A DNA stretch of 24,000 nt from Carbonactinospora thermoautotrophica (GTDB taxonomy: Bacteria; Actinomycetota; Actinomycetes; Streptomycetales; Carbonactinosporaceae): the NCBI RefSeq assembly GCF_001543895.1, contig NZ_JYIJ01000011.1, positions 146,593-170,592 on the forward strand. Reading direction: 5' to 3'. Both the position numbers and the translations under genes were made by a program. This document shows positions 931 to 23,631 of this stretch, piece after piece. The notes beneath the pieces were generated by a model, which saw only the letters and a program-made list of their open reading frames with translations, had not been told where the DNA came from and searched no databases. How positions within the stretch are numbered: position 1 is the first letter of the stretch; each line of letters starts with the position of its first letter.

Positions 931-982
931 GAACGGCGCATCGCACCGAACCGATTGGCCGGAATCGGTCTGTTTCAGCGGA

Positions 983-1753: not shown

Positions 1754-1775
1754 ACCAGCCTCCTGAAGGAATCGT

Positions 1776-2771: not shown

Positions 2772-2786
2772 GCGACCTCCTCGGGC

Positions 2787-3497: not shown

Positions 3498-3498
3498 G

Positions 3499-3780: not shown

Positions 3781-3781
3781 C

Positions 3782-4045
3782 TCACTTCTCCTTCGGTTCG
3801 GCCGACACCGGCTCGTCGATCGAGCCGATGATCAGCGCGTCAATCGGGGGGTGGTTCGGCAGCCAGGACGAGGCGACCGACCCCTGGGCGACCAGGACCC
3901 GCTCGCCTACGCCGCTGCCGAGGACGTCGAACGCGACCAGTCGACTGCCGGACCCGTCGACCTCGACCTCCAGGAACGCGCCGCCCGGGATCCCGTCGAC
4001 CCGCTTGGTCGACCACACCGGGGCGACGACCGTCGCCCGCAGCAT
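3782..4045 (-). CDS. BMC-P pentameric vertex protein (EutN/CcmL family)
   Basis: 87 aa. '[29 protein letters not shown]...[25 protein letters not shown]' matches the EutN/CcmL pattern. Its ATG shares 1 nt with the upstream stop (TGATG). Confidence 0.9.
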
Positions 4046-4494: not shown

Positions 4495-5096
4495 TCCAGC
4501 CTCCGCAGTGCCGTCTCGGCCGCCTCGGCGGCCATCCGGACGTCGGACTCGCGTCCGCTCAGGTACACCCGGCCGGTGGCGCCCATCATCCGGTAGTCCA
4601 CGACCTTGATCTGGGCCGCCTTCTCCGCCTCGTTGGTGGCGAGGATCGCGTACGAGGCGGGCTGCATCTCCAGCACGAACAGCGATTCGTGCGGGAGGAT
4701 CATCGATCCGGCCTTGTTCCTGTTGATCAGGAACGCGTGCAGGTGGTCGACGCTGCTGATGATCTTGGATGCGAGGATCTTCGGCCGGGTGGCGTCCTCC
4801 TCGCTCACGCCGAGCGTCTCCAGCACGGCGGCGCTGGCGCTGCGCACCGCGGCGGTCGACCGGGAGTGGATCTCCAGGTAGCCGAACTGCCGTTCGACCA
4901 CCAGGATCCCGGCCTGGACTTGGGCGTGCTTGAGCGCGACGTCGGTGAGCGGCTCGATGTCCAGCCCGGGGGCGACCTCGATGATCTGCGCGGCCATGTT
5001 GGTGCGCGGCAGGCTGCCCCGGATCCAGGTGCCGAGATAGCACATGGTCTGCGGCTGGAGCTGGTCGATGAAAATGAACGAGCGCAGTTCGGCCAT
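4491..5096 (-). CDS. BMC shell protein, tandem/permuted BMC-domain type (BMC-T-like)
   Basis: 201 aa and a paralog of 2787..3497. The ATG at 5096 lies 2 nt after the aldehyde dehydrogenase stop. Confidence 0.85.
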   Translation of the reverse strand: MAELRSFIFIDQLQPQTMCYLGTWIRGSLPRTNMAAQIIEVAPGLDIEPLTDVALKHAQVQAGILVVERQFGYLEIHSRSTAAVRSASAAVLETLGVSEEDATRPKILASKIISSVDHLHAFLINRNKAGSMILPHESLFVLEMQPASYAILATNEAEKAAQIKVVDYRMMGATGRVYLSGRESDVRMAAEAAETALRRLE

Positions 5097-5098
5097 GG

Positions 5099-6655
5099 TC
5101 AGACCTTGATCAGCTCGCGCAGTTCCTCGATGACCAGCCGCCGGATCTCCTCGCGGAGAACCGAGAGCTCATCGGGAGCCGCGGGGGACGGGACGGGATC
5201 CGCGGCCGGCCCCCCAGCGTGGCCGCGGGCGTTCGAGGCCACCGGGTACGGCGGCATCGGGACCGGCTGCGGCGGGTACGTCTGCCACGGCTGCAGCCCG
5301 GAGAAGTCGCCGAACGGCACGGCGGCGTCGGCGTTGTACGCGATCCGGGTCCAGTTGACCAGGTGCTCCGGGCGCAGGTTCTCCCCGACCGAGCTGCGGC
5401 CGAGGAACCCGGTGCCGATCGTCATCGACGGCGCCAGGTGGGTGTCGAAGCCCGCGCTGCCGGTGCTCGACCCCACGTTGACCGCGACCCGCAGCACGTC
5501 CACGGCCGCCGCGTACGCCATGATCGTGCGCGGGTCCGTGGAGTGGATCGCCGCGGAGTGGCCAGCGCCGCCGATCCGCAGGATTGCCCGGCTGGCCCGG
5601 ATGCCGCGCTCCACGGTCGGCACCCGCAGCACGGCGAGCACGGGGCACAGCTTCTCGTGCGCCAGCGGCTCCTCAGGCACGGCCAGCTCGATCGGAGCGA
5701 GCAGCACCCGGGTCCGCGGGGAGACCTGGATGCCGGCCTGCTGGGCGATCCAGCCGGCGTCCTTGCCGACGGCGGCGGTGTTGAAGTGCCCGTCCGGGAA
5801 CAGGAACTCCCGCAGCCGGTCGCGCTCGGCCGGCGTGGCGAGGTAGGCGCCCTCGGCCTCCAGGTGGCGCAGGAACGCGTCGGCCGCCTTGTCCTCGACG
5901 ACCAGCACCGACTCGTTGGTGCACAGCACCGAGTTGTCGAAGCTCTTGCTGTCGACCAGCCGCTTCGCGGCCGCCGGCAGGTCGGCCGTGGCGTCCACGA
6001 GCACCGGCGCGTTGCCCGGGCCGACCCCGATCGCCGGGTTGCCCGACCGGTAGGCGGCGCGCACCACGGCCGTGCCGCCGGTGGCCAGGATCACGTCCAC
6101 CCGGTCATCGCCCATCACGGCGTTGATCAGCGGGATCGACGGCTGGTCGATCACCTGGACCACCCCGTCCGGGGCGCCCGCCTGGTACGCGGCGGCGGCC
6201 AGCGTCCGCGCCGCGTCGGCGCAGCATTCGCGGGCCATCGGGTGCGGGCTGATGATGATCGCGTTGCGCGTCATCAGCGCCAGCAGGACCTTGAAGTACA
6301 CGGTCGAGACCGGGTTGGTCGACGGGGTGAGCGCGAACACGATCCCCGCCGGCCGGGGCACCTCGACGAGCTTGCGCCCGGCGTCGATCCGCGCGCTGAC
6401 CAGGTCGGTGTCCGCGTAGTGCTCGGCCAGGCCGCGCGAGCACAGCTCGTTCTTGAGCCGCTTGTGCTCGACGACCCCGAAGCCGGTCTCCCGGACCGCC
6501 CACTCCGCGTAGTGCTGGGCCTTCGCGTACGCGACGTCCGCCACCGCCTGGACGATGCGCCGGACCCGCTCCCGGTCGTACCGGGCGAAGGCCGCCGCCG
6601 CCCATTCGGCGCGCTGCAGCATCAGCCGGGCCCGCTCCAGGGCCGCGTCGGTCAT
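5099..6655 (-). CDS. CoA-acylating aldehyde dehydrogenase (PduP/EutE-like) with a C-terminal encapsulation peptide
   Basis: 518 aa taken from the internal ATG at 6655 (MTDAALERAR...), which overlaps the upstream stop as ATGA. The catalytic Cys context is 'KSFDNSVLCTNES'. A Pro-rich linker is followed by the amphipathic tail 'ELSVLREEIRRLVIEELRELIKV'. The 28 Arg/Gly-rich codons upstream in ORF 5099..6739 are rejected. Confidence 0.9.
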   Translation of the reverse strand: MTDAALERARLMLQRAEWAAAAFARYDRERVRRIVQAVADVAYAKAQHYAEWAVRETGFGVVEHKRLKNELCSRGLAEHYADTDLVSARIDAGRKLVEVPRPAGIVFALTPSTNPVSTVYFKVLLALMTRNAIIISPHPMARECCADAARTLAAAAYQAGAPDGVVQVIDQPSIPLINAVMGDDRVDVILATGGTAVVRAAYRSGNPAIGVGPGNAPVLVDATADLPAAAKRLVDSKSFDNSVLCTNESVLVVEDKAADAFLRHLEAEGAYLATPAERDRLREFLFPDGHFNTAAVGKDAGWIAQQAGIQVSPRTRVLLAPIELAVPEEPLAHEKLCPVLAVLRVPTVERGIRASRAILRIGGAGHSAAIHSTDPRTIMAYAAAVDVLRVAVNVGSSTGSAGFDTHLAPSMTIGTGFLGRSSVGENLRPEHLVNWTRIAYNADAAVPFGDFSGLQPWQTYPPQPVPMPPYPVASNARGHAGGPAADPVPSPAAPDELSVLREEIRRLVIEELRELIKV

Positions 6656-7941
6656 CGAACACCCCCTCCCACCAGGCCGGCGACCTCCCGCCGCGCGACG
6701 GCGACCGCGACGTCGAGGCGGTCGAGGATCTCTTCGCACAGCCGCGGGTCGAGCAGGATGCCGGGCTTGAACTGCAGCACCCGGGGGTCGAGCGTCGAGA
6801 AGATCGCCCAGACCCCGTTGTCGTACAGGGCCTTCATCACGTAGTTGGCGCCGCGCGGGTGGTCGAATTCCAGGCCCATGACAACCCCGTCCTGGCGGAT
6901 GCCGACGAAGAAGTCCGGGTACCGGGCCTGGATCTCGGCGAGCCCCCGGCCCAGCAGGTCGGCGATGTAGTGCACCATCGAGCGGACCTCGGGCCGCTGG
7001 CAGATCTCGATCACCTTGAGACCGACCACGCAGCCCAGCTCGGCGCCACCCATCGTCGACATGTGGGCGAATCCGTCCTTGGTCAGCCAGCCGGCGCAGC
7101 GCTCGCTCACCACGACGCAGGCCAGCGGGTACATGCCGCCGGAGATGCCCTTGCCGATGACGAGCAGGTCAGGCTCGACGTCGTGCTTGGTGATCCCCCA
7201 CATCTCGCCGGTGCGCATGAGCCCGGTCTGCACCTCGTCGGCGATGTAGAGCGCGTCGTACGTCTCGCAGAGCCGCTTGACCTCTCGCAGGTAGCCGGGG
7301 TTCGGCAGTGGAAAGCCGTACGTCGCGGGGATCGTCTCCAGGATCACGGCGGCGACGTCGCGCCCGCGCAGGGCGGCCTCCATCGCGGCCAGGTCGTTGA
7401 ACGGCACGTGCACGAACTCGTCCGGCCGGTCGGCCAGGAAGATCTTCGAGAACCGGTCGTCGCCCAGGCCGACCGCGAGCCCGGTGTGCCCGTGGTACGC
7501 CTTGATGATCGACACGATCTTGCGCTTGCCGGTCACGTGACGGGCGGTCTTGAGGGCGATGTCGACGGCCTCGCCGCCACCGCTGGCGTAGATCACCTTG
7601 CTCATGTTCGGCGGGCACGCCTTGACCAGCGCCTCGGCGAGCGCCGTGCGGGCGAGCGACGGGAAGTGGTGGTTGCCGATGTCGAACCGCTCCATCGCGA
7701 CCCGCAGGGCCTCCACCAGCTCCGGGTTGCGGTGGCCGAGGTTGTAGGTGCCGCCGTTGAGGTGGACGTCGATGAGCCGCTTGCCCGACATGTCGTACAG
7801 GAAGTAGCCCTCGCGCCGGTCGATGACCAGGTCGACCCCGGAGTCGATCCAGTGCTGGGTCTTTCCCGGGTTCCAGTAGGCCTTCGCCTTGTCGAGGACC
7901 TCGCCCTTGGAGGCGAACGAGAAGAAGCCGTAGTCGTGCAT
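6652..7941 (-). CDS. Class-III (PLP) aminotransferase-fold enzyme; by context 1-amino-2-propanol O-phosphate phospho-lyase
   Basis: 429 aa with typical class-III AT blocks ('IKAYHGHTGLAVG', 'LYIADEVQTGLMRTG', PLP-Lys context 'LLVIGKGISGG'). It is the first gene of the minus-strand operon. Confidence 0.9.
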   Translation of the reverse strand: MHDYGFFSFASKGEVLDKAKAYWNPGKTQHWIDSGVDLVIDRREGYFLYDMSGKRLIDVHLNGGTYNLGHRNPELVEALRVAMERFDIGNHHFPSLARTALAEALVKACPPNMSKVIYASGGGEAVDIALKTARHVTGKRKIVSIIKAYHGHTGLAVGLGDDRFSKIFLADRPDEFVHVPFNDLAAMEAALRGRDVAAVILETIPATYGFPLPNPGYLREVKRLCETYDALYIADEVQTGLMRTGEMWGITKHDVEPDLLVIGKGISGGMYPLACVVVSERCAGWLTKDGFAHMSTMGGAELGCVVGLKVIEICQRPEVRSMVHYIADLLGRGLAEIQARYPDFFVGIRQDGVVMGLEFDHPRGANYVMKALYDNGVWAIFSTLDPRVLQFKPGILLDPRLCEEILDRLDVAVAVARREVAGLVGGGVR

Positions 7942-8169
7942 GACCTGCCCGTCTGCGGTCTCGGGGGTCCGCGGCCGGCGTCATACCGTAACCGCTTTTG
8001 GTTGGACCGAAACCGTAGAAGGGTCAGACCATCGATGTCAATGGGTTGAACCAAGTTACAAGAATTTAAACCGAAACTCTTGAAACTCGCCTACCACGAG
8101 TGCCACCATCCCCGGCAATCGCGCTTCCGCGGGCCCGCGCACCATACCCCAACGGAGGTATCGGCCACC
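7942..8169. promoter_or_regulatory. Divergent promoter/operator region between the BMC operon and the permease gene
   Basis: 228-bp intergenic gap containing the only AT-rich patch in the locus (ccaagttacaagaatttaaaccgaaactcttgaaact). It holds the palindromes GGTCAGACC (8022-8030) and GGTTGAACC (8044-8052) and the direct repeat ACCGAAAC (8006-8013, 8070-8077). Confidence 0.6.
8022..8040. promoter_or_regulatory. Candidate GntR/HutC operator (minus-strand reading TGACATCGATGGTCTGACC)
   Basis: It shares TGAC-N5-TGGTC-N2-ACC with the 912-930 site. It contains a GGTC-N-GACC palindrome, the core type used by HutC-family regulators such as DasR. Confidence 0.35.
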
Positions 8170-9705
8170 GTGAGCACCACAGAGGAACGTATCTCCACCG
8201 CCACCGCGACGACCCCCGATGTTCAGCGGCTACGCAAGGGCGCGGTCGGCATGGTCGGCGTCATCTTCATGGCCGTGGCGACGGCCGCGCCCATCACCGC
8301 CATGGTCGGGAACGTGCCGGTCGCGGTCGGCTACGGCAACGGCATCGGGGCGCCGGCCGGCTACCTCATCGCCACCGTCGTGCTGACCGTCTTCTCGGTC
8401 GGCTACGTCGCGATGGCTCGGCACATCACCGCGACCGGGGCGTTCTACGGCTACGTCTCACACGGGCTCGGCCAAGTCGTCGGCATGATCGCCGGGCTGC
8501 TGGCCGCCCTCTCCTACATCGTGTTCGAGGCTGCGCTGGTCGGGATCTTCTCGTACTTCGCCCACAACACGGTCCGCGACCTGCTCGGCCTCAACGTCCA
8601 CTGGCTCGTGTTCGCCCTGCTCATGCTGGGCGTGAACGCGGCGCTCACGTACTTTGACATCACCCTCACCGAGCGGGTGCTCGGCCTCTTCTTGCTCACC
8701 GAGATCGCGATGCTCAGCCTCATGGCGGTCGCGGTCCTCGTGCACGGCGGCGGCCCCGACGGCCTCGCCGTGTCCGCGCTCAACCCGCTGAACGGCCTGC
8801 GGCCCGCCACCAGCGTGGCCGGCGCGTCGGCCACGCTCGGCCTGTTCATGGCCTTCTGGTCGTGGGTGGGCTTCGAGTCGACCGCGATGTACGGGGAGGA
8901 GTCCCGCGACCCCAAGCGGATCATCCCGCGCGCCACCCTGCTCGCGGTGGTCGGGATCGGCATCTTCTACGTGTTCGTCTCGTGGATGGCGATCGCCGCC
9001 AACGGCCTGCACCAGTCGGTCGCGATCGCGGGAGGGAAGGACCCGAGCCAGCTGTTCTTCGCGCCCACCGAGCGGCTGGTCGGCCACTGGGCCGTCGTGA
9101 TGTTCGAGATCCTGCTCGTGACCGGGTCGTACGCCTGCGGCATGGCGTTCCACAACTGCGCCGCCCGCTACCTGTACGCGATCGGCCGGGAGAACCTCAT
9201 CCCCGGCACCGGCCACACGCTCGGCGCCACCCACCCCCGGTACCGCTCGCCGTACGTCGCCGGGTTCACCCAGACCGCCATCGCCACCACGCTTGTGCTG
9301 CTGTTCTGGGTGACCGGCAAGGACCCCTACCTGGAGCTGTACGTGCTGCTCGCCATCCTCGGCACCATGGCGATCCTAATCGTACAGAGCCTGTGCTCGT
9401 TCGCCGTGATCGGGTACTTCCACGTGCGCCGCAAACACCCCGAGACCCGCAGCGTCTGGCGCACCCTCCTCGCCCCGTTGCTCGGCGGGGTCGGGATGAT
9501 CTACATCATCGTGCTGCTGTTCCAGAACCAGCAGACGGCGGCCGGGGCGGCGTCCAAGGACCTGCTCTTCAAGCTCATCCCCTACATCGTGCTCGGCACC
9601 GCCGCGCTCGGCGCCGGCCTCGCCCTGTACCTGCGCGCGCGGCGGCCGGACAAGTACGAGATCATCGGCCGGATCGTGCTCGAAGACACCATCGAGCGGG
9701 ACTGA
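8170..9705 (+). CDS. APC-superfamily amino acid/amine permease (probable substrate importer for the BMC pathway)
   Basis: ORF 8080..9705 (TTG). About 12 hydrophobic segments with a typical APC N-terminus 'LRKGAVGMVGVIFMAVATAAPITAM'. The GTG at 8170 is preferred because GGAGG lies at 8154-8158. The start is uncertain. Confidence 0.85.
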   Translation: MSTTEERISTATATTPDVQRLRKGAVGMVGVIFMAVATAAPITAMVGNVPVAVGYGNGIGAPAGYLIATVVLTVFSVGYVAMARHITATGAFYGYVSHGLGQVVGMIAGLLAALSYIVFEAALVGIFSYFAHNTVRDLLGLNVHWLVFALLMLGVNAALTYFDITLTERVLGLFLLTEIAMLSLMAVAVLVHGGGPDGLAVSALNPLNGLRPATSVAGASATLGLFMAFWSWVGFESTAMYGEESRDPKRIIPRATLLAVVGIGIFYVFVSWMAIAANGLHQSVAIAGGKDPSQLFFAPTERLVGHWAVVMFEILLVTGSYACGMAFHNCAARYLYAIGRENLIPGTGHTLGATHPRYRSPYVAGFTQTAIATTLVLLFWVTGKDPYLELYVLLAILGTMAILIVQSLCSFAVIGYFHVRRKHPETRSVWRTLLAPLLGGVGMIYIIVLLFQNQQTAAGAASKDLLFKLIPYIVLGTAALGAGLALYLRARRPDKYEIIGRIVLEDTIERD

Positions 9706-13490: not shown

Positions 13491-13659
13491 CGGCGACGGA
13501 CACGACCAGCACCACGACTCCAGCGAGTCGCCCGACCACACCACCGTCCGCTGACGCTCTCCCGCTGGGGGCACTGCGGACAGGCCGGCGGGTGCGCTGG
13601 CCCACCTCGACAGGCTGGCGTGTTGATCAAGCCAGCATCAAGAAAGGAAGTGCGTGGTC

Positions 13660-14451
13660 ATGGGCATTGCTCGTCGCCTAGCTCTGCTGTTTCGGATGAA
13701 GGCGGACGAAGCCCTCGATCGTGCGGAAGACCCGCGCGAGGTGCTGGACTACTCCTACGAACGCCAGCTGGAGATGCTGACCAAGGTGCGCCGGGGCGTG
13801 GCCGACGTGGTCACCAGCCGTAAGCGCCTTGAGCTGCAGCTCGGCCAGCTGCGGCAGGCCGCCGACCGGCTCCAGACGCAGGCCCGGCAGGCCGTCGACG
13901 CGGGCCGGGACGACCTGGCCCGGGAAGCGCTGACCCGACGGTCGGCCGCGCTGACCCAGATGGCCGCCATCGCAGCCCAGCGGGACGCGTTGCAGGCCGA
14001 GGAGGACAAGCTCACCCTCGCCGCGCAGCGGCTGCAGGCCAGGGTGGAGGCGTTCCGGAGCCGCAAGGAGACCATCAGGGCCACCTACACCGCCGCCGAA
14101 GCGCGGACCCGCATCGGCGAAGCGGTCTCCGGCATCTCCGAGGAGATGGGCGACGTCGGCCTGGCCATGCAGAGGGCCGAGGACAAGACCGTGCAGATGC
14201 AGTCGCGCGCCGCGGCCCTCGACGAGCTGATCGCCTCCGGCGCTCTCGACGACGCCACGCTGCCGGCCGGGCAACGCGACGACATCCAGGCCGCGCTCGA
14301 CGCCGCCCGCGGCGACGCCGACATCGAACACCAGCTCACCGCGTTGAAGACCCAACCCGCCCTCACCGCACAACCCGCCCCAGCCGACAACGACCCCGAC
14401 GCGCCCCGGACCATCACCGGCACGCGCTCGACAGAAGAGGGCAAGCCGTGA
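13660..14451 (+). CDS. pspA: PspA/IM30 family membrane-stress protein
   Basis: A long coiled-coil with the family N-terminus 'GIARRLALLFRMKADEALDRAEDPREVLDYSYERQLEMLTKVRRGVADVVTSRKRLE'. The ATG at 13660 follows GAAAGGAAG. Confidence 0.9.
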   Translation: MGIARRLALLFRMKADEALDRAEDPREVLDYSYERQLEMLTKVRRGVADVVTSRKRLELQLGQLRQAADRLQTQARQAVDAGRDDLAREALTRRSAALTQMAAIAAQRDALQAEEDKLTLAAQRLQARVEAFRSRKETIRATYTAAEARTRIGEAVSGISEEMGDVGLAMQRAEDKTVQMQSRAAALDELIASGALDDATLPAGQRDDIQAALDAARGDADIEHQLTALKTQPALTAQPAPADNDPDAPRTITGTRSTEEGKP

Positions 14452-14624
14452 TCACCAGCATCCTGGGCGAGGGCCGGCACGCCGCGGCGCTCCAACAGCT
14501 TCTCGCCACCGTCCGCACCCTGGGTACCGCCGTGCCGCTCACCGTCTTTGACCTCGTCCTGCCCGGCGAGGGCGCCGGCCTGGAAGAGGGCGCCGCCTTG
14601 CTCGGCGACGAGAGTCCGGGTTGA
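14448..14624 (+). CDS. 58-aa mini-ORF coupled to pspA (PspAA-like, apparently shortened)
   Basis: It is not in the ORF track because it is under 60 aa. The GTG at 14448 overlaps the pspA stop as GTGA. It translates to VITSILGEGRHAAALQQLLATVRTLGTAVPLTVFDLVLPGEGAGLEEGAALLGDESPG and stops 4 nt before the htpX ATG. About 50 of 58 third codon positions are G/C. Confidence 0.5.
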   Translation: MITSILGEGRHAAALQQLLATVRTLGTAVPLTVFDLVLPGEGAGLEEGAALLGDESPG

Positions 14625-14628
14625 CCTC

Positions 14629-15552
14629 ATGCGTACCCGATTCCGGCCCGACCGGCAGCTGACGGCCCGCATGGTGTTCACCATGTTCCTGCTGGGCCTG
14701 GTGTATGTGGCGTTCGTCGCCGCGCTCATCGTCTTGATCAAGTCGGTGTTCGTCGTCGTGCTCATCGCCGGTGGGCTGCTGGCCGCGCAGTACTGGTTCT
14801 CCGACCGCATCGCCCTGTACGCCATGCGCGCCAAGGTCGTCACCCCGGAGGAGGAGCCGAGGCTGCACGGCGTCATCGACCGGCTCTGCGCCACCGCCGA
14901 CATGCCCAAACCACGGGTCGCCGTCGCCGACACCGACCTGCCCAACGCGTTCGCCACCGGGCGCAACACCCGCCGGGCGGTGGTGTGCGTGACGACCGGT
15001 CTCCTGCGGCGCCTCGACACTGCCGAACTGGAAGGCGTGTTGGCCCACGAGCTGTCCCACGTCGCCCACCGCGACGTGGTCGTGATGACCGTGGCGTCGT
15101 TCCTCGGCGTGCTGGCCGGGCTGGTGGCTCGTTTCGCGTTCTACTCCGGGCTGTTCGGCGGCCGTGGACGCCGCGACGGCAACGACAACAACGCCTACCT
15201 CGTCGTCCTGCTCGTCATGGTCGTCTCCGCGGTCGTGTACGCCGTCAGTTTCCTGCTGGTACGGGCGCTGTCGAGGTACCGGGAGCTGGCCGCCGACCGG
15301 TCCGGGGCGATGCTCACCGGCCGCCCCTCGGCGCTGGCGTCGGCGTTGACGAAGGTCAGCGGCGAGATGGCCCGGATCCCCACCCGCGACCTGCGGACAG
15401 CCGAGGCGTTCAACGCGTTCTTCTTCGCCCCCGCGCTCGGCTCCCGGGCCAGCCTGTCCACGCTGCTGTCCACCCACCCCACCTTGCAGCGGCGGCTGGA
15501 CCAGTTGGCCGCCATCTCCACCGAACTGGGAGGGCCAGCCCCGAACCCATGA
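14629..15552 (+). CDS. htpX: M48-family zinc metalloprotease HtpX
   Basis: 'LAHELSHVAHRD' (HExxH), TM helices around the catalytic domain and a C-terminal 'LSTHPTLQRRLDQL'. The internal ATG at 14629 (MRTRFRPDRQL) is preferred over the ORF-track start at 14548. Confidence 0.9.
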   Translation: MRTRFRPDRQLTARMVFTMFLLGLVYVAFVAALIVLIKSVFVVVLIAGGLLAAQYWFSDRIALYAMRAKVVTPEEEPRLHGVIDRLCATADMPKPRVAVADTDLPNAFATGRNTRRAVVCVTTGLLRRLDTAELEGVLAHELSHVAHRDVVVMTVASFLGVLAGLVARFAFYSGLFGGRGRRDGNDNNAYLVVLLVMVVSAVVYAVSFLLVRALSRYRELAADRSGAMLTGRPSALASALTKVSGEMARIPTRDLRTAEAFNAFFFAPALGSRASLSTLLSTHPTLQRRLDQLAAISTELGGPAPNP

Positions 15553-16124
15553 GATTCCTGGACGCCCTGCTCGGCCGCACCAGACCGGCCAAGCCTAACC
15601 TCGACGTGCTGTTCGCGATCCCGTCCGCCGCCTACACCCTGCAGGCCGGACTCGGACTGGCCCCCACCGGGGTCGGCGCGGTCTGCTTCAAGACCACCGA
15701 AGGCCAGGCGGCCACCCAGGCGCAAGCCGACGCGCTCGCGCTGGCAGACGCCGGCTCGGGCGGGCGCACCACCGTCAGCCACGACGAGTACTCCTACACC
15801 TGGGTGACCTGCCGACGAGCGGACGCCGACCTACCCGCCCTGGTCACCGCCCTGCACGCGATCAACGTCACGCTCGCCGAGGCCGGGTTTGGCTCCAGCC
15901 TGCTGTGCACCGTAATCGGCTTCGCCGCTGGCGGCGACAACCCCCGCCGCCTCGGGCTGGTGTACCTGTTCAAACGCGGTACCTTCTACCCGTTCGCCCC
16001 GGCCGGCGGGCAAACCCGCGACACCGCCCTGGAGATCCAGGTCCGCGCCCAGCTCGGCGGTGAGCTGCCCATCGAACCCGACCTGTCCCGGTGGTTCCCC
16101 ATCTGGGCCGCACCCGCCCTGTAG
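15549..16124 (+). CDS. 191-aa PspA-associated protein (PspAB-like), function unknown
   Basis: The ATG at 15549 overlaps the htpX stop as ATGA. The reading frame is the last 191 codons of ORF 14985..16124. 'MRFLDALLGRTRPAKPNLDVLFAIPSAAYTLQA' matches my recollection of the PspAB family N-terminus. Confidence 0.7.
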   Translation: MRFLDALLGRTRPAKPNLDVLFAIPSAAYTLQAGLGLAPTGVGAVCFKTTEGQAATQAQADALALADAGSGGRTTVSHDEYSYTWVTCRRADADLPALVTALHAINVTLAEAGFGSSLLCTVIGFAAGGDNPRRLGLVYLFKRGTFYPFAPAGGQTRDTALEIQVRAQLGGELPIEPDLSRWFPIWAAPAL

Positions 16125-16170: not shown

Positions 16171-16989
16171 TCACCCCAGCTCGCGCGCCAGTCTGCGGTT
16201 GGTGGCCTCGATCTGCCGCAGCGTGGTCCGGCGCAATCTCTCGACCTGCTCGTCAGTCAGCCGGTCGGTGGTCCAGTCCCAGTGCAGCGCGACCCACTCC
16301 CCTGGCCGCACGTCAGGCAGGAAGCTGAGGCCATCGACGAAGAGCGTGGCCCGCTCCACCCGGGGTTCGGAGAGCCCGAGCCGCCCGCCCTCCCAGGTGA
16401 GCCGCTGGCAGCTCACCACGATGTGGTCGCCGTCACGCTCCAGCACCCGCCCCCACCGGATCCGACAGTTGTCCAGCACCTGGAGCGGCTGCTCGAAGTT
16501 CCGCGGCCCGAGCAGCCGGGACCAGGGGTAGACGCCGAACACGTGGAAGCAGTGGTTCGGGGCGGCCTCGTCGAGGATCTCCGGGGTGAGGTGCTTCCAG
16601 TAGTGCCCGGCCTGCGGCCGGATCCGGGCCAGCAACGCCTCGCCGAACTCGCGTGGATCGACCGCGTCCGCCACCCCGCCGCCGAGCCAGTACGCCTCGA
16701 CCACCTGGCGGTCCAACGGGTCGTCGATGCCGACCAGCCGGGCCAGGATCTCCAGGTACGGCCAAGCGCCGTGGAAGCCGCGGGCCAGCGCCCGCAGGTC
16801 GCCCTGCACGACCCCGGTCGCGCCGTAACCCAGCAGCGTCTCGGAGTGCGCCGGCCCGCAGTAGCCGAGCTTGTTGGGGGCGTAGGCGTAGCGGGCGAAC
16901 AGCCATGCCCCCGCGTGGTCGCTCTCCGCCGCGACCGCGACGGGGCCGGCATCGCCCGCGGGGGCGGGCCGTCCTTCGGTTGCGCTCAT
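16171..16989 (-). CDS. Conserved hypothetical protein, last gene of the hyp operon (possibly DUF6390-like)
   Basis: 272 aa with high GC3. The ATG at 16989 overlaps the hypD stop as ATGA. Notable blocks are 'YAPNKLGYCGP' and 'NHCFHVFGVYPW'. The family name is recalled from memory, not verified. Confidence 0.75.
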   Translation of the reverse strand: MSATEGRPAPAGDAGPVAVAAESDHAGAWLFARYAYAPNKLGYCGPAHSETLLGYGATGVVQGDLRALARGFHGAWPYLEILARLVGIDDPLDRQVVEAYWLGGGVADAVDPREFGEALLARIRPQAGHYWKHLTPEILDEAAPNHCFHVFGVYPWSRLLGPRNFEQPLQVLDNCRIRWGRVLERDGDHIVVSCQRLTWEGGRLGLSEPRVERATLFVDGLSFLPDVRPGEWVALHWDWTTDRLTDEQVERLRRTTLRQIEATNRRLARELG

Positions 16990-18119
16990 CGCTCACCCGA
17001 CTGGCCGACGAGCTGCGCCGTCTCCCGGTGCAGCCGACCGAAGTTGTAGTAGGCCGCGCAGGCACCCTCCGGTGAGACCATGCACGTCCCGATCGGGGTC
17101 TCCGGGGTGCAGGCGGTGCCGAAGACCTTGCACTCCCACGGCTTGATCACACCCTTGAGGACCTCGCCGCACTGGCAGGCCTTCGGGTCGGCGACCCGCA
17201 CCCCGGGCATCTCGAACCGCCGCTCGGCGTCGAACTGCGCGAAGTCGTCGTTGAGCTTCAGGGCGCTCTGCGAGATGAAGCCCAGACCACGCCACTCGAA
17301 GTGCGGCCGCAGCTCGAACACCTGTCCCATCAAGGCGAGCGCCTGCGGGTTGCCCTCCTCCCGTACCACGCGCCCGTACTGGTTCTCCACCTCGCAGCGG
17401 CCCTCGCGGATCTGCTTGAGCAGCATGGCGACCGCGGCGAGGATGTCCAGCGGCTCGAACCCGGCCACCACCAGCGGCTTGCCGTAGACCTCCGGGACGA
17501 AGCGGTACGGCCGGGTGCCCACCACGGTCGAGACGTGGCCTGGTCCGAGGAATCCCGACAGCCGCAGATCCGGGGACTCCAGGATCGCCTTGATCGGCGG
17601 GACGATCGTGACGTGGTTGCAGAAGACGCTGAAGTTGGTCAGCCCCAACTCGCGGGCTCGGAGCAGGGTGACCGCTGTGGAAGGCGCGGTGGTCTCGAAG
17701 CCGACGGCGAAGAACACGACGTGCTTGTCCGGGTTGTCGACCGCCAGTCGCAGCGCGTCCAGCGGCGAGTACACGAACCGCACGTCCGCCCCCCGCGCCT
17801 TGGCATCCAGCAGGCTGCCGCGGCTGCCCGGCACCCGCATCATGTCGCCGAACGAGGTGAAGATGACGCCGGGCTGCTCGGCCAGCCACAGGGCGTCGTC
17901 CACCCGCCCCATCGGGATCACGCACACCGGGCAGCCCGGGCCGTGCACCAGCTCCACCGACTCGGGCAGCAGGTACTCGAGGCCGTGCCGGTAGATGGTG
18001 TGGGTGTGACCGCCGCACACCTCCATGAACTTGTAGTGCTCTGATCCCGCCATGTCCTTGATGGCGGCCAGCAGCCCGCGTGCCGCGGCGGGGTCGCGGA
18101 ACTCTTCGATAAAGCGCAT
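16986..18119 (-). CDS. hypD: [NiFe]-hydrogenase maturation protein HypD
   Basis: 377 aa with 'FMEVCGGHTHTI', 'GPGCPVCV' and 'FETTAP' signature blocks. Confidence 0.95.
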   Translation of the reverse strand: MRFIEEFRDPAAARGLLAAIKDMAGSEHYKFMEVCGGHTHTIYRHGLEYLLPESVELVHGPGCPVCVIPMGRVDDALWLAEQPGVIFTSFGDMMRVPGSRGSLLDAKARGADVRFVYSPLDALRLAVDNPDKHVVFFAVGFETTAPSTAVTLLRARELGLTNFSVFCNHVTIVPPIKAILESPDLRLSGFLGPGHVSTVVGTRPYRFVPEVYGKPLVVAGFEPLDILAAVAMLLKQIREGRCEVENQYGRVVREEGNPQALALMGQVFELRPHFEWRGLGFISQSALKLNDDFAQFDAERRFEMPGVRVADPKACQCGEVLKGVIKPWECKVFGTACTPETPIGTCMVSPEGACAAYYNFGRLHRETAQLVGQSGER

Positions 18120-18157: not shown

Positions 18158-18430
18158 TCAGGCGATCGCCGATGAGTCAAAGGCCTCGATCTCGTCGCGA
18201 TAGGCCTGTCCTAGCTTCTCCATCGCGGCGCGCGTCAGCTTCGCCTCGTTCTCATCGATCTTCGCCATGGCGAATCCGACGTGCACCAGCACCCAGTCGC
18301 CGGTCCGCAGCCCCTCCTCGGCGAGCAGCCGCACGCTGATGGTGCGCTGCACCCCGCCGGCGTCGACCTTCGCAAGGTGCTGCTCGGCGTCGACGATCTC
18401 AACCACCTGGGCGGGAATCCCCAGACACAT
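18158..18430 (-). CDS. hypC: HypC/HybG/HupF-family hydrogenase chaperone (copy 2)
   Basis: 90 aa with the N-terminus 'MCLGIPAQVVEI' and 'GDWVLVHVGFAM'. Confidence 0.9.
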   Translation of the reverse strand: MCLGIPAQVVEIVDAEQHLAKVDAGGVQRTISVRLLAEEGLRTGDWVLVHVGFAMAKIDENEAKLTRAAMEKLGQAYRDEIEAFDSSAIA

Positions 18431-18481: not shown

Positions 18482-19609
18482 TCAGCAGATGCGGGGCAGC
18501 GGATCACCGACCAGCATGTCCACGATCCGGCTGCCGCCCAGGCCGGTGCGCAACGCGACGGTCCCGGCCGGCTGCTCGGTGATCTCACCGATGACCGCGG
18601 CCGCCCGCCCCAGCGGGTGCTCCCGCAGCGCGGCCAGCGCGGCCTCGGTCTCCTCAGGCGCCACCACCGCGACGAACTTGCCCTCGTTGGCGACGTAGAT
18701 CGGATCGATGCCGAGCAGGTCGCAGGCAGCCTGCACCTCAGGCAGCACCGGCAGCCGGCGCTCGTCGAGTACCACGCCGAGCTGGGTGTCCTGGGCGAGC
18801 TCGTTGCAGACCGTCCCGACGCCGCCCCGGGTGGGATCGCGCAGCCAGCGCGTGGACGGCGCCGCGGCCAGCAGCGTCTCCACCAGGCCGTTGACCGCCG
18901 CGGTGTCCGACCGGATGTCGGCCTCGATCGCCAGGTCGCCGCGGGCGAGCATGACGGCCATCCCGTGGTCGCCGATCGTGCCCGACAGCAGCACCTGGTC
19001 GCCCGGCCGCACCAGCTCGGCGGACAGCCGACGGCCGGCTGGGATCAGCCCCACGCCGGCGGTGGTGATGAACAAGCCGTCCGCGGCACCGGTGCTGACG
19101 ACCTTGGTGTCCCCGGTCACCACCCGAACCCCGGCGGCCTCGGCGGCCTCGGCCATGTCCGCGGCGATCCGGCGCAGCTCGTCGACCGGGAAACCCTCCT
19201 CGATCACGAATGCCGCGGAGATCCAGGAGGGCTGGGCACCCATCATCGACAGATCGTTGACCGTGCCGTGTACCGCCAGGTGGCCGATCGAACCGCCCGG
19301 GAAGCGCAGCGGCTTGACCACGAAGGAATCCGTGCTGAACGCCAACGATTCCCCCGACGGCAGCGGCAGCACCGCGCCATCGCCGAGCACCTCCAGCTCC
19401 GGGTTGTGGAAGGCCTCCACGAAGACCGAGCTGACCAGCGCTGCCGAGGCCTTCCCCCCGGCCCCGTGGGCCAGCGTCACGACCTCGTCACGCAGCCGTG
19501 GCCGGCGGCGCCGGAACGCGTCGATCCGCTCCAGGACCTGGTCCTCCCGGAACACCGGTCCGGTGCGCTCCGCCTTCGTGCCTGCGACCTTGCTGTCTCC
19601 GAGGCTCAT
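18482..19609 (-). CDS. hypE: Hydrogenase maturation carbamoyl dehydratase HypE
   Basis: 375 aa taken from the internal ATG at 19609 (MSLGDSK...; GGAGG upstream; ATGA overlap with the SIS gene stop). AIR-synthase-like blocks 'LAHGAGG' and 'GHLAVHGTVNDLSMMGA', and the diagnostic C-terminus 'GDPLPRIC'. Confidence 0.95.
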   Translation of the reverse strand: MSLGDSKVAGTKAERTGPVFREDQVLERIDAFRRRRPRLRDEVVTLAHGAGGKASAALVSSVFVEAFHNPELEVLGDGAVLPLPSGESLAFSTDSFVVKPLRFPGGSIGHLAVHGTVNDLSMMGAQPSWISAAFVIEEGFPVDELRRIAADMAEAAEAAGVRVVTGDTKVVSTGAADGLFITTAGVGLIPAGRRLSAELVRPGDQVLLSGTIGDHGMAVMLARGDLAIEADIRSDTAAVNGLVETLLAAAPSTRWLRDPTRGGVGTVCNELAQDTQLGVVLDERRLPVLPEVQAACDLLGIDPIYVANEGKFVAVVAPEETEAALAALREHPLGRAAAVIGEITEQPAGTVALRTGLGGSRIVDMLVGDPLPRIC

Positions 19610-20271
19610 CGGGGTCCTTCCCCTCCGGCCAGGTGCTGCTGCACCGTGGCCCACAACTGGTAGCCGAGCAGTGCCTGCGACTCCTGGATGCGGTGCACGC
19701 TCTGCGACCGCACCACGAAGCAGAAGTCGACGTTGCCGTCGGTGGCGAACCGGCCGCCGTCGTAGCCGGCGAAGCCGATGGTGAGCAGCCCGCGCCGCTT
19801 GGCCTCGGCCAGCGCCACCGTGAGGTCTTCGGAGTTGCCGCTGGTCGACAGCGCCACTGCGATGTCGGCCTGGCCGGAGTGCGCGATGAGCTGCCGGGAG
19901 AACACCAGATCGAAGCCGACGTCGTTGCCCAGCGCGGTGAGCACCGCTTGGTTCGCGGCCAGCGACCAGGCCGGCAGCGGCCGGCCGTGCGGCGGACGGG
20001 AGAACAGCTCGGCCAGCGTGGCCGCGTCGGTCGAGCTGCCGCCGTTGCCGAAGGTGTACATCCGCCCGCCCCGGGCGAACCGTTCGGCCATCGCCGCCGC
20101 GGCGGCCGTGATCTGCTCGGCGCACTCCTCGAGCGTCGCGCGCTGCAGCGCCGCGCTCTCCCGGGCCTTCGCCTGCGCCGAGGCGGCGAGGTCTGCCAGT
20201 AGCGCATCCGCGTTGCGCTCCTCGGCGTCGAGGAACGGGTAGAGGAAACCGGTGCTCTCGGTACCCATCAC
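19606..20271 (-). CDS. SIS-domain protein (GmhA/phosphoheptose-isomerase-like) embedded in the hyp operon
   Basis: 221 aa with 'RMYTFGNGGSSTDAATLAELF' and 'DIAVALSTSGNSEDLTVALAEAKRRGLLTIGFAGYDGG', both canonical SIS motifs. The start is GTG 20271 (GTGA overlap) or ATG 20268. Confidence 0.85.
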   Translation of the reverse strand: MMGTESTGFLYPFLDAEERNADALLADLAASAQAKARESAALQRATLEECAEQITAAAAAMAERFARGGRMYTFGNGGSSTDAATLAELFSRPPHGRPLPAWSLAANQAVLTALGNDVGFDLVFSRQLIAHSGQADIAVALSTSGNSEDLTVALAEAKRRGLLTIGFAGYDGGRFATDGNVDFCFVVRSQSVHRIQESQALLGYQLWATVQQHLAGGEGPR

Positions 20272-21005
20272 GCACCATCCTCGTCGAGTCGGGTGATCGC
20301 CGATCCAGCGTGCACCAGCACCAGGTCACCCGTCGCCACCGGCTCCACCAGCAGGGTGTCCACGAGCTCCTCCCCCGCCGCGGTGCGCACCAGCGCCCGG
20401 CCGTCCGCCGCCGCCCGGGGTGCGATCACCTCCGCGAGTCGGCCCTCGTCGCTGCAGGTGACGCACACCTCCTCGGTGCATTCCGGAGCGGACGTGCTGA
20501 GGAGGCCGGGGTGTTCGAAGCAGACGTGGGTCAGCTCCCACAGCAGGTGGTAGAGCAACACGAACCGGCCGGTGGCCGGCAGCCGCGGATCCGGGTCGTC
20601 CAGCCACAGTACGTGGTCGGCGGCGCCGGCCGGCGGCCGCGGGCCGTTGCCGATCCACACCGTGGTCGTCCCCCAGGCCGGCGCCCGGCGCATCACGGAG
20701 CGCACCGCGGTGTCGGAGGCGGGGGCCACCGCCAGGATCACGTCCCCGGGCCGGGCCGACACCCGGACCATGGCGACCGGGTCCGGGTCGGTCACGGCCA
20801 CCGCGGGCAACGCCCGCTTGCCGACGATGACGGGGTGGACGAACTCCACGGCGATGTGGTGGGCGTGCGGCGCCCACGACGGCGACAGGCACCACAGGGT
20901 GGCGCCGGCGGCGAAGCGGCGAGCCAGGGCGAGCGAGGCGGCGGCGAGATCGGCGGCCAGACCCTCGTTCAGGGGGGTGGTGTCGGCGGGCGTGGGCGCG
21001 CTCAT
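20268..21005 (-). CDS. Fusion protein: degenerate SIS-like N-domain + HypC/HupF-like C-domain with an internal CxxC
   Basis: 245 aa from the ATG at 21005 (ATGA overlap with the hypC stop). The N-domain aligns by eye to the neighbouring SIS protein, but GNGGS is replaced by 'SPSWA' and STSGNS by 'APASDT'. The C-terminal 66 aa, 'CVTCSDEGRLAEVI...ALVRTAAGEELVDTLLVEPVATGDLVLVHAGSAITRL', parallels HypC. Confidence 0.75.
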   Translation of the reverse strand: MSAPTPADTTPLNEGLAADLAAASLALARRFAAGATLWCLSPSWAPHAHHIAVEFVHPVIVGKRALPAVAVTDPDPVAMVRVSARPGDVILAVAPASDTAVRSVMRRAPAWGTTTVWIGNGPRPPAGAADHVLWLDDPDPRLPATGRFVLLYHLLWELTHVCFEHPGLLSTSAPECTEEVCVTCSDEGRLAEVIAPRAAADGRALVRTAAGEELVDTLLVEPVATGDLVLVHAGSAITRLDEDGA

Positions 21006-21274
21006 TGCGCTCCTCCGGTGACGGCTGCGGAACCGGGCAGGGTGTCCTCGATCACCCCGTACTCGGCCATCATCTTCAGCGTGACCAGCGCGGACTCCTC
21101 GTCCAGCCGGGTGAGGGCGAATCCTGCGTGCGCCACGACGTAGTCGCCCACCTGGAGATCGGGGAGGTAGGCCAGGCACACCTTCCTCGTCTCACCGGGA
21201 AACTCGACACGGGCCATCTTGGTCCCGTTCTCTTCCCAGATCTCGACGATCTTGCCTGGAATGCCCAGACACAT
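21002..21274 (-). CDS. hypC: HypC/HybG/HupF-family hydrogenase chaperone (copy 1)
   Basis: 'MCLGIPGKIVEI...GDYVVAHAGFAL'. The ATG at 21274 gives the obligatory Met-Cys N-terminus and follows GGAGGAG. The ORF-track GTG at 21280 is rejected. Confidence 0.9.
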   Translation of the reverse strand: MCLGIPGKIVEIWEENGTKMARVEFPGETRKVCLAYLPDLQVGDYVVAHAGFALTRLDEESALVTLKMMAEYGVIEDTLPGSAAVTGGAQ

Positions 21275-21276: not shown

Positions 21277-23631
21277 TCACTCCTCCTCGTCACTCGCGTG
21301 CAACGCCGCGACCGCCGCCTGCCCGAGGGCCAGCCCGCCGTCATTGGGCGGTACGACCCGGTGGGTCAGCACCTCGAATCCCGCCTCGCGCAGCCGGTCC
21401 CGACAGGCACGCAGCAGCAGCACGTTCTGGAACACCCCGCCGGTCAGACCGGCCAGCCGGATCCCCCGCTCCCGCCCGACCCGCGTCACCAGCTCGGCGA
21501 CCGCCACGGCCACCGCCTGGTGGAAGGCCGCGGCCAGTGTCGCAACCGGCGTGCCGTCGCGTAGCCCCGCCACCAACCCGTGCAGCAGCGGGGTCGGGTC
21601 GAGCACACCGTCCGGGCCGACCGCCAGTCGCAGCGACGGCAGCTCGCCGTCGGCCACGGTGGCGAGCGCCTCCAGCTCGATCGCCGCCTGGCCCTCGTAG
21701 CTGATCCGGTGGCGGACACCGAGCAGCGAGGACACCGCGTCGAACAGCCGTCCCATGCTGGTGCAGTCGGCGCAGCCGAGACCGCTGTCCAGCTGGGAGC
21801 GCACGGCGCGCAGCTCGGCGGGCTCGCAGGCGGCCACCGGGGGCAGGTCGTCGTCCCAGGGGATGCCAGCCGAGGCCAGGTGGGACAGCGCCATCCGGCA
21901 GGGGTTGCGCACTGCCGCGTCACCACCTGGCAGTCGCACCGCGCGCAGGTGGCCGACCCTGGTGAAGCGGTGGCTGTCGGAGCCCAGCAGCAGCACCTCG
22001 CCGCCCCAGACGGCTCCGTCGGTGCCGTAGCCGGTGCCGTCGAACGCCACCCCCACGATCGGCTCGCCGAGTCGGCCGTGCTCGGCGAGCAGCGAGACGA
22101 CATGCGCGTGATGGTGCTGCACCAGGTGTAGCGGCCGGTCGCCGGCGTGGCGCTCGGCCCACCTGCGGGTCAGGTAGCCAGGGTGGGCGTCGGCGGCCAG
22201 CCGTGCCGGCTGGACGCCGTGGAACGCGGTGAGCTGGCCGACCGCGCGTTCGAAGGCGCGCAGCGTTTCCAGGCTGCCCATGTCACCCACGTGCGCCGAG
22301 CAGAACGCGTGCTCCCCCTCGGTTACGCAGAAGGTGTTCTTCAACTCGCCGCCGACCGCCAGGATCACCTCGCTCCGCCGGCCCAGCCGGATCGGCAGCG
22401 GGGCGTAGCCGCGGGATCGGCGGATCGGCAGTTCGTGGCCGTCGACGACGCGGACCACCGAGTCGTCGCAGGGCACGTGGATCGGCCGGTCGTGGGTGAG
22501 CACCGCGTCGGCCAGCAGCGGCAGCCGGGTGCGGGCGTCCTCGTCGTCGAAGCAGATCGGTTCGTCGGAGATGTTGGCGCTGGTCAGCACCAGGACCTCG
22601 GGAACCGGGGCGGCGGAGCCGGGCACGGGAGCGAACAGCAGGTGATGCAGCGGCGAGTAGGGCAGCATCACGCCGATCAACGGGTTGCCCGGTGCCACGC
22701 CCTCGGCCACGGGGGCGTCCGGCCGGCGTCGCAGCAGCACGATCGGGCGAGCCGGGCTGGTCAGCACCGCGGCCTCCGCCGCGTCGATCTCGGCCAACCG
22801 CCGTGCCACCGCCAGGTCCCGGGCCATCACCGCGAACGGTTTCCCGGCGCGGGCTTTGCGCTCGCGCAGCAGCCGCACCGCCGTCTCGCTGTCGGCTGCG
22901 CACGCCAGGTGGTAACCGCCGATCCCTTTCACCGCGACCACCAGTTCCTCGGCCAGCGCCTGGTGGGCGGCGGCCAACGCCGCGTCGGATCCGGTGACGG
23001 TTTCCTCGCCGCGTACGAAGGACAGCCGTGGTCCGCAGTCCGGACAGCACAGCGGCTGGGCATGGAAGCGGCGGTTGGCCGGGTCGTGGTACTCGGCCGC
23101 GCAGGCCGGGCACATGGGGAAATCGGCCATGGTCGTGGCCGGCCGGTCGTAGGGCAGCGATCGGATGATGGTGAACCGGGGACCGCAGTTGGTGCAGGTG
23201 ATGAACGGGTGGCGGTAGCGGCGGTCGGCCGGGTCGAACAGCTCGCGCACGCAGTCGTCGCACACCGCCACGTCCGGCGACACCAGGGTGCGGGCGCCGT
23301 CGGCACTGCGGCTGGCCACGATGCGGAAGCCAGACTCCCCGGCCACCGACGCCACCGGATCGGCCCGCAACGCCACGATGCGGGCCAGCGGCGGCGCGTC
23401 GGTCCGCAGCCGCCGCAGGAACTCTTCCACCTTCGGCGACGGACCCTGGACCTCGATGAACACCGAACTGGAGTCGTTGCCGACGAAACCGGCGACCCCG
23501 AGTTCGGTGGCCAGCCGGTGGACGAAGGGCCGGAATCCCACCCCCTGGACAACGCCCTCGACCGTCACCCGGAGCCGCTGCGCGGCATCCGAGCGGCCGG
23601 TGGGCGCGGGGCGCACGCGCGTCGCGGTCAT
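21277..23631 (-). CDS. hypF: Carbamoyltransferase HypF
   Basis: 784 aa from the ATG at 23631. It has an acylphosphatase domain ('[18 protein letters not shown]'), two zinc-finger pairs ('CDDC...CTNCGPRFT', 'CPAC...[10 protein letters not shown]'), and YrdC-like and Kae1-like C-terminal domains. The 65 codons upstream in ORF 21277..23826 overlap the NHL gene and are rejected. Confidence 0.95.

Follow-up and report, generated by a model that had tools for sequence, protein, structure and literature searches.

Introduction

The closest described relatives of the genes treated here are the phosphoheptose isomerase GmhA and the hydrogenase maturation protein HypC. In GmhA, the catalytic zinc is bound by four invariant residues, His64, Glu68, Gln175 and His183, of which the two His and the Glu are required for activity (PMC5705639). 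The active site crosses the subunit interface, with a Glu (alpha2) and a His (alpha6) supplied by one subunit and a Gln (alpha6') by its neighbor (PMC4697000), and in a model of Mycobacterium tuberculosis GmhA, one monomer contributes Glu66 and another contributes Gln173 together with the loops that bind the substrate (PMC7705670). Half-of-sites reactivity has been described between paired GmhA sites (PMC5705639; also PMC4697000). The essential Cys of HypC is N-terminal (PMC12134894). We analyzed a 24,000-nucleotide stretch of the Carbonactinospora thermoautotrophica genome (contig NZ_JYIJ01000011.1, positions 146,593 to 170,592), referred to below as the window and used for all coordinates unless another sequence is named. 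Two overlapping genes in a hyp operon of this window, here called X and B, encode a protein that joins a predicted GmhA-like domain to a HypC-like domain (X) and a GmhA-like sugar isomerase (SIS) protein (B). The conservation pattern of their orthologs indicates that each protein lost the active-site residues that the other keeps.

Genes labeled gmhA have already been published as members of group 1h and 2a hydrogenase clusters (PMC11879354, PMC5900883). This agrees with the association with actinobacterial-type clusters that the initial annotation of this DNA had mentioned. A neighborhood survey also lists a SIS cluster among hydrogenase neighbors (PMC12727194), and some members are automatically annotated as "hydrogenase maturation factor/phosphoheptose isomerase". 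The 2025 maturation review does not mention X/B-type genes, and the description of the Cupriavidus necator actinobacterial hydrogenase (AH) cluster does not mention its SIS gene (PMC4377017). The components are of known kinds, a GmhA-type SIS enzyme and a HypC-like domain. In the open-access literature and preprints we found only passing mentions of gmhA in these clusters, and no paper on the function of hyp-linked SIS genes, on the X-type protein, on the fusions or on the division of the active site, nor any on the ancestor-like form with a single chain.

X and B share a predicted GmhA fold

The two genes and the domains of X are as follows.

Gene X, 20268-21005, minus strand: 245 amino acids, ATG at 21005 to TGA at 20268; predicted GmhA-fold N-domain, flexible Cys-rich linker and C-terminal HypC-like oligonucleotide-binding (OB) domain
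X N-domain, 20496-21005, minus strand: about amino acids 1-170; metal residues kept, sugar-phosphate loops lost
X HypC-like domain, 20271-20468, minus strand: V180-A245, 66 amino acids; Pfam PF01455
Gene B, 19606-20268, minus strand: GmhA-like SIS protein; 220 amino acids from ATG 20268 or 221 from GTG 20271; TGA at 19606

B matches the Pfam family SIS_2 (E 4e-15) and, by sequence, GmhA crystal structures at E ~1e-25. Its scores lie far below every GmhA equivalog cutoff in NCBIfam (109.7 versus 276 and 100.5 versus 209.45 bits; models TIGR00441, NF010546, NF001628 and NF010547). X matches no NCBIfam GmhA model. The SIS nature of its N-terminal ~170 residues went undetected by the Pfam and NCBIfam libraries, and phmmer against the PDB reached only E ~0.3. 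Structure comparison was more sensitive: the AlphaFold2 (AF2) model of X, with a predicted local distance difference test (pLDDT) score of 82.5, has GmhA as its best Foldseek matches in the PDB (5lu5, 2x3y and 2i2w; E ~1e-8, probability 1.0), with DiaA next. In addition, hhalign of 79 X N-domains against 78 B orthologs aligned 149 columns at E 9e-6. From the Foldseek search of the model and the profile alignment, we regard the X N-domain and B as paralogous and the N-domain as having, on its predicted structure, the GmhA fold.

Both domains of X had been proposed in the initial annotation, as a SIS-like domain paralogous to B and a HypC/HupF-like domain. Structural, profile-profile and Pfam comparisons recovered both folds, so that this part of the proposal holds. 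The family shares its fold with GmhA of Burkholderia pseudomallei (2X3Y, 2XBL) and Escherichia coli (2I2W). Unlike GmhA, it has its own motifs (N-terminal FLYPF, EF(V/L)HP and YHxxW), lies in hyp operons rather than heptose pathways, and carries a HypC-like domain on one of its halves.

GmhA active-site residues are divided between X and B

B. pseudomallei GmhA was aligned with the X (79) and B (78) orthologs from 80 genomes; B residues are numbered on the 221-amino-acid open reading frame (ORF) starting at GTG 20271. Three of the four zinc ligands have counterparts in X and not in B. At the position of His64, X has His50 in 79/79 orthologs (20856-20858), whereas B has Thr85 in 78/78 (20017-20019). 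At the position of Glu68, X has Glu54 in 79/79 (20844-20846) and B has Leu89 in 77/78 (20005-20007). His183 corresponds to His153 of X in 79/79 (20547-20549), next to Tyr152, and to Tyr204 of B in 69/78 (19660-19662); the match of His153 to GmhA His183 was also found in a seven-sequence alignment. Gln175 shows the reverse pattern, with Gln196 present in all 78 B orthologs (19684-19686) and Ala144 in 77 of the 79 X orthologs. Asp61 is likewise kept in B, as Asp82, and is His47 in 79/79 X orthologs.

The sugar-phosphate loops show the same distribution as Gln175. B retains GNGGS (20035-20049), TALGND and STSGNS (19831-19848), each in 78/78 or 77/78 orthologs. In X, GNGGS is replaced by SPSWA (amino acids 41-45, 20871-20885), the GND loop is deleted and STSG is replaced by APASDT (amino acids 94-99, 20709-20726). 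X alone and B alone therefore each lack the full GmhA residue set, and together they carry every GmhA active-site residue.

The initial annotation had described B as a canonical SIS protein and X as its degenerate paralog. The intact loops of B and the motif replacements in X stand as described. However, B is missing three of the four GmhA zinc ligands, and the contrast of a canonical with a degenerate protein does not survive: judged by their conserved residues, X and B are a complementary pair, each having lost what the other keeps. Because GmhA sites span the subunit interface, one full site would be restored only by an X:B heteromer. Given the half-of-sites reactivity of GmhA, a heteromer in which each pair has a single live site is a plausible and natural end point. 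The in-trans geometry of such a composite site is taken from published GmhA work and would apply here by analogy.

X and B are always adjacent and are fused in many genomes

X is directly followed by B in 76/76 loci in which the contig reaches past X (80 loci in all), and the X/B junctions are mostly ATGA, GTGA or TGATG overlaps. The conserved core of these actinobacterial loci is X-B-hypE-hypC-hypD(-DUF6390).

A survey of hyp clusters for the X-type fusion had been suggested along with the initial annotation. An exhaustive representative search and a follow-up search revealed many natural single-chain fusions of X- and B-type domains, 390-530 amino acids long, in the order N-domain-HypC-like-SIS or N-domain-SIS. 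Some of them lie on contigs of hundreds of kb and within hyp clusters, with arrangements such as HypF-HypC-[fusion]-HypD-HypE and HypA/HypB | HypF-[fusion]. In Thermus, a 392-amino-acid tandem N-domain-SIS gene is found in the order hypE-[tandem]-glutaredoxin-like gene-hypF; the tandem gene of Thermus thermophilus pTHTHE1601 lies at 7827-9005 of locus L088. On a Sulfobacillus acidophilus plasmid, tblastn detected a homolog at about 4806-6000 of locus L090, where the PLSDB table lists no gene.

The three-domain fusion P0125, which is 52% identical to X, was modeled by AF2 with pLDDT 89.8 and a predicted template modeling score (pTM) of 0.80. In this model the C-terminal SIS module superposes on GmhA at 1.3-1.8 Å. 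The whole chain also aligns with the isomerase domain of GlmS (1MOQ, 3TBF, 7DNR) over 440-468 columns (TMq ~0.5, E 1e-8 to 1e-7), in which two SIS modules pack as a pseudo-dimer with one functional sugar-phosphate site. This fit is loose (root mean square deviation 5-6 Å, 8-11% identity). Unlike GlmS, the SIS subclass here is GmhA-type with a metal site, and the modules in the window are separate polypeptides.

A SIS heteromer of X and B is strongly indicated by their complementary residue loss, by the natural fusions and by an adjacency that is universal and involves overlaps of stop with start codons, much as the initial annotation had suggested in proposing a SIS heterodimer.

Single-gene forms carry the complete residue set

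A search of plasmid proteins identified a single 229-amino-acid SIS protein encoded between hypC and hypD in the "actinobacterial" group 1h/5 cluster of C. necator H16 plasmid pHG1. Further single genes were found in proteobacterial hyp clusters.

C. necator H16 pHG1 single SIS gene (H16_RS31885), NC_005241.1 69693-70382 (locus L087, 8755-9444): between hypC and hypD
Bradyrhizobium single SIS gene, locus L089, 4755-5447: between hypC and hypD of a hyp cluster
Acidisphaera single SIS gene, locus L091, 6001-6684: between hypC and hypD of a hyp cluster

All three are from Proteobacteria, and the clusters are group 1h-type in C. necator and Acidisphaera and Huc-like in Bradyrhizobium. The genes are annotated only as "SIS domain-containing protein" or sedoheptulose-7-phosphate isomerase, and these relatives also score under the GmhA cutoff (148-157 versus 209). 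They combine B-type motifs (LYPFL, GNGGS, GND, STSGNS, HRVQE) with X-type motifs (HIAVEFLHPV, YHILWDLVH). The two proteins that were aligned with GmhA, from C. necator and Bradyrhizobium, have every GmhA site residue in one chain, and all seven motifs are kept in 117/120 close homologs of the C. necator protein. The C. necator protein shares with X and B both its position in the hyp cluster, between hypC2 and hypD2, and their motifs. It differs in being one chain with complete residues and no HypC-like domain, presumably a homo-oligomer, so that by comparison the window version is duplicated, complementarily degenerate and provided with an added tether.

Placement beside hyp genes and the shared motifs FLYPF, EF(V/L)HP and YHxxW are common to X, B and the single-gene forms. 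Besides the 80 actinobacterial loci, this placement was seen in Cupriavidus, Bradyrhizobium, Acidisphaera, Thermus and Sulfobacillus. Linkage to hypC/hypD/hypE extends across Actinomycetota, Alpha- and Betaproteobacteria, Deinococcota and Bacillota, and the synteny spans at least five phyla. The simplest reading of these sequences would be that a GmhA-like gene dedicated to the hyp set was duplicated and that the two copies then degenerated in complementary ways. A tandem hypC-SIS duplication in which the middle two genes were fused would give the order in the window, namely hypC, N-domain plus HypC-like domain, and B. The Val before Cys181 of X could in that case be a fossil of the absorbed start codon.

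The HypC-like domain of X retains the Cys and His of HypC

The C-terminus of X matches PF01455 with 35.1 bits (gathering threshold 28.5, E 1.5e-8), the match covering the last 45-66 residues. Its score against TIGR00074, 29.4 bits, is under the cutoff of 48. The AF2 model of the domain has five beta-strands with pLDDT ~90, and the C-terminal helix of HypC is absent. A CxxC motif is formed by C181 (20463-20465) and C184 (20454-20456), and both residues, together with H232 (20310-20312), are invariant in 36 homologs. A MAFFT alignment places C181 on Cys2 of HypC and H232 (LVLVHAGSAI) on His49/His51, so that X has a counterpart of the conserved HypC His (E. coli His51, in the VxVHxGFA motif). Cys2 and His51 of HypC are the two residues implicated in iron binding.

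X therefore resembles HypC, HybG, HupF and HoxL in its PF01455 match over the C-terminal 66 amino acids, its five-stranded OB-like domain, the retained equivalents of Cys2 and His51, and the position of its gene among hypC, hypD and hypE. It differs from them in its missing C-terminal helix and in the position of its Cys. Cys181 and Cys184 lie 180 residues into X, behind the N-domain, and neither is the free N-terminal Cys2 of HypC. The CxxC loop falls in a segment with pLDDT < 50 in the AF2 models, and the linker is predicted to be disordered or flexible. It should also be noted that the operon already contains two HypC genes of the ordinary kind, with a Met-Cys start.

The HypC-like domain is missing from many family members, which have either a stand-alone N-domain gene followed by B or an N-domain-B fusion. 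Because such forms exist, the domain would be an optional accessory tether and not the core of the system.

X and B belong to the maturation half of a Huc-type operon

The window has a G+C content of 71.5%. The hyp genes form a minus-strand run, hypF-hypC-X-B-hypE-hypC-hypD, with ATGA/TGATG overlaps between genes. The neighbors of X and B are as follows.

hypF, 21277-23631, minus strand: 784 amino acids; heads the hyp run; acylphosphatase, zf-HYPF, YrdC and Kae1-like domains and gene call
hypC copy b, 21002-21274, minus strand: 90 amino acids, Met-Cys start; directly upstream of X; PF01455 E 7e-26; gene call
hypE, 18482-19609, minus strand: 375 amino acids; AIRS and AIRS_C domains; start overlaps the B stop (ATGA)
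hypC copy a, 18158-18430, minus strand: 90 amino acids, Met-Cys start; PF01455 E 7e-26, TIGR00074 86 bits
hypD, 16986-18119, minus strand: 377 amino acids; PF01924 from the gene call; follows hypC in 80 loci
DUF6390 gene, 16171-16989, minus strand: 272 amino acids; PF19927 E 3e-108; last of the conserved run; synteny

The overlaps that couple X and B to their neighbors were all found as first read from the DNA. X starts on the hypC stop in an ATGA overlap (CAATGAGC), X and B share a GTGA/TGATG junction within GTGATG (GCGTGATGGG), and B and hypE overlap by ATGA (CGATGAGC). G+C content at third codon positions (GC3) is 0.93 for X and 0.92 for B, comparable with the flanking hyp genes (0.82-0.93 over the whole run). 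The product of X is 100% identical to an annotated C. thermoautotrophica protein (P0001), and relatives are encoded in at least 575 species-level genomes. Given this combination of GC3, annotation and distribution, we conclude that X and B are real genes.

Beyond the end of the window, the C. thermoautotrophica genome encodes upstream of hypF, in order, a hydrogenase small subunit, a 535-amino-acid large subunit, a protease, small ORFs, a tetratricopeptide repeat (TPR) protein, a NifU/Rieske protein and an NHL protein. The large subunit matches Mycobacterium smegmatis Huc (7UUS, 7UTD) with E = 0. The operon is therefore Huc-type (group 2a), and the window holds its maturation half, for an oxygen-insensitive hydrogenase. 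Neither hypA nor hypB is in the immediate gene run at this locus. The hyp genes of M. smegmatis Huc (MSMEG_2271-2276) apparently lack the X-B pair, in a published table that has gaps in the Hhy region.

Two entries in the mechanical ORF list are too long. The true start of hypC copy b is ATG 21274 (Met-Cys) and not GTG 21280, and hypF is called from ATG 23631 (784 amino acids) and not from GTG 23826 (849 amino acids). The start of the DUF6390 gene overlaps the hypD stop. The C-terminus of its product (DNCRIRWGRV ... PGEWVALHWDW) is weakly HypC-like, with phmmer E 0.09 against Thermococcus kodakarensis HypC and an hhalign probability of 24% over 22 columns, and its Cys175 and His236 are invariant in 68 orthologs. 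The DUF6390 protein may thus be another case, after X, of a HypC-like module placed internally.

The remainder of the window contains other systems. At 53-9705 lies an RMM-type (Rhodococcus/Mycobacterium) bacterial microcompartment (BMC) locus that has no relation to the hydrogenase genes. It encodes the shell proteins BMC-H and EutN, a GntR/UTRA regulator, a kinase of the APH family, an amino-acid permease, a class-III aminotransferase and an aldehyde dehydrogenase. At 13654-16124, on the plus strand and convergent with the hyp operon, are genes for PspA/IM30, an M48 peptidase and PspA-associated protein B (PspAB).

A proposed split isomerase tethered to the maturation machinery

We favor, with moderate confidence, a model in which X and B each supply one half of a split, metal-dependent sugar-phosphate isomerase of the GmhA-like type. 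This enzyme would be tethered by the HypC-like domain and dedicated to the hyp maturation set of oxygen-insensitive group 2a/1h-type [NiFe]-hydrogenases. After duplication of the ancestral gene, the actinobacterial X would have kept only the His/Glu/His triad (H50, E54, H153) and B only the pocket (GNGGS, GND, STSGNS, Q196). The X:B heteromer would then contain one complete composite site, in which the X triad faces the Gln and phosphate pocket of B, and one dead reciprocal site, a hard-wired form of the half-of-sites behavior of GmhA. In many actinobacteria, the HypC-like domain would serve as its tether, with HypD/HypE or the apo large subunit as the docking partner. The product or a bound ligand would act where Fe(CN)2CO is assembled or handed over, and the complex would serve the maturation of hydrogenases made and working in air. 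The folds, the complementary residues, the natural fusions and the synteny are shown by the data above, whereas we infer that the heteromer forms, that catalysis is retained, that the tether has a docking partner in the maturation machinery and that the complex has a role in cofactor assembly.

Several observations weigh against this model. The Cys of X is internal, unlike that of HypC, and docking through the HypC-like domain would not be essential to the core function, given the members that do without it. The geometry of the X:B interface comes from the residue pattern and from published GmhA structures, one of the papers using a homology model. Further invariant residues of X (H47, H57, E157, H160, C162, E164, H165) have no place in the model. 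In a distant subfamily of fusions, the His64 and Glu68 positions of the B-type domain are Asp and Asp, showing that complementarity is not absolute. Finally, every hyp-linked SIS protein falls below the NCBIfam GmhA cutoffs.

A more specific and highly doubtful extension is that the hyp-linked enzyme, as X:B or as the single chain of C. necator, carries out a missing ligand-supplying step when the [NiFe] cofactor is assembled in air. Its substrate would be a ketose or aldose phosphate, converted through a metal-bound enediol or aldehyde intermediate, which would donate its carbonyl (CO), another group or a reducing equivalent to iron held on the CxxC/His of the HypC-like domain or on HypCD. 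This would be an alternative to the formyl-tetrahydrofolate (formyl-THF)/HypX route, specific to hydrogenases that oxidize atmospheric H2. A metabolic CO source outside the HypX pathway is listed as unresolved (PMC12134894).

Other readings of the X-B pair

It is unlikely, in our judgment, that the SIS folds are non-catalytic and form a DiaA-like oligomerization platform, displaying at least two HypC-like domains on which HypD or apo large subunits would be kept while the large Huc/Hhy complexes assemble. A scaffold would fit the lack of any sugar-phosphate loops in X and the flexible linker that carries the HypC-like domain. There is also precedent in DiaA and HobA, which use the GmhA fold in a protein-assembly role; DiaA, one of the structural matches, binds DnaA and has no isomerase function (PMC4697000). 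However, their genomic context is unrelated, and the catalytic Glu is replaced outright in DiaA-type proteins (PMC4697000), whereas here it is retained on the partner chain. Also against a scaffold, the conservation of the residues for catalysis, metal and phosphate is strictly complementary (77/78 to 79/79), the single-gene forms retain a complete GmhA catalytic set, and many family members have no HypC-like domain.

Less probable still is that the X N-domain is a metallochaperone for Ni, Fe or Zn, acting through PHAHHxAVEFVHP, YHLLWELTHVCFEH and CxxxxCxxC, with B being separate or regulatory, for example a sugar-phosphate sensor. The many His, Glu and Cys residues that are invariant in X besides the GmhA triad (those listed above, with C181 and C184) are consistent with metal binding, as is the absence of hypA and hypB from the immediate gene run. 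Yet the single-gene forms share EF(L/V)HP and YHxxW(D/E)LVH and keep a full sugar-phosphate pocket. It follows that these residues belong to one enzyme-like site family. Fusion or adjacency with B is moreover universal.

The initial annotation had also raised internal initiation. In this reading, widened here to include cleavage before Cys181, a start at GTG 20468 or such a cleavage frees a HypC-like protein with an N-terminal Cys, and the fusion is a co-expression device. The GTG-TGC at 20468-20463 does directly follow GAGGAG, the linker is predicted to be disordered and HypC requires an N-terminal Cys (PMC12134894). However, there is no spacing between the Shine-Dalgarno-like GAGGAG and the GTG. 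Among 79 orthologs, the codon before Cys181 is GTG in 25, GTT in 21, GTC in 20, GTA in 4 and a non-Val codon in 9, so that 54 have a non-start codon, and GTG makes up 56% of all Val codons in these genes. Start codons are therefore not enriched at this position, and we rejected a conserved internal GTG start. Since the domain is also internal on both sides in the three-domain fusions, we consider release of a free HypC-like protein very improbable. The same codon (window 20466-20468) is GTT in 21/70 Val cases, compared with ~5% GTT among the Val codons of these genes, an excess that may stem from the common ancestry of the mycobacterial loci and not from selection.

Least credible of all is that B is a plain GmhA of heptose (cell-envelope glycan) synthesis whose gene happens to sit within the operon, and X a long HypC paralog with an unrelated N-terminal extension: although public annotations name B and its relatives "D-sedoheptulose 7-phosphate isomerase" and X "HypC/HupF", and PMC11879354 handles the gene as a heptose-pathway gmhA, we rejected B as a genuine GmhA because it lacks His64, Glu68 and His183, invariant and required in that enzyme (PMC5705639), and scores far under the curated cutoffs (110 bits versus 276), while the linkage to hypC, hypD and hypE holds across phyla and the extension of X is itself predicted to have the GmhA fold and is fused to B in many genomes.

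Significance

Atmospheric H2 is consumed by group 2a (Huc) and 1h (Hhy/AH) hydrogenases, which are sought after as catalysts insensitive to oxygen. Their production in foreign hosts requires that the full set of maturation genes be known. The SIS genes inside these hyp clusters, found in at least five phyla, have so far been ignored or filed as heptose-pathway "gmhA". Treating X and B as an interdependent pair, with a conserved composite enzyme-like site and a HypC-like module, makes a defined hypothesis out of a vague "gmhA plus hypothetical protein". The pair would also illustrate cleanly, from nature, how complementary degeneration can resolve an oligomeric half-of-sites enzyme into a heteromer. 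Should the enzyme indeed feed cofactor assembly, it would bear on the question of where the ligands come from. The X/B pair points to a widely conserved step in the building of air-tolerant hydrogenases.

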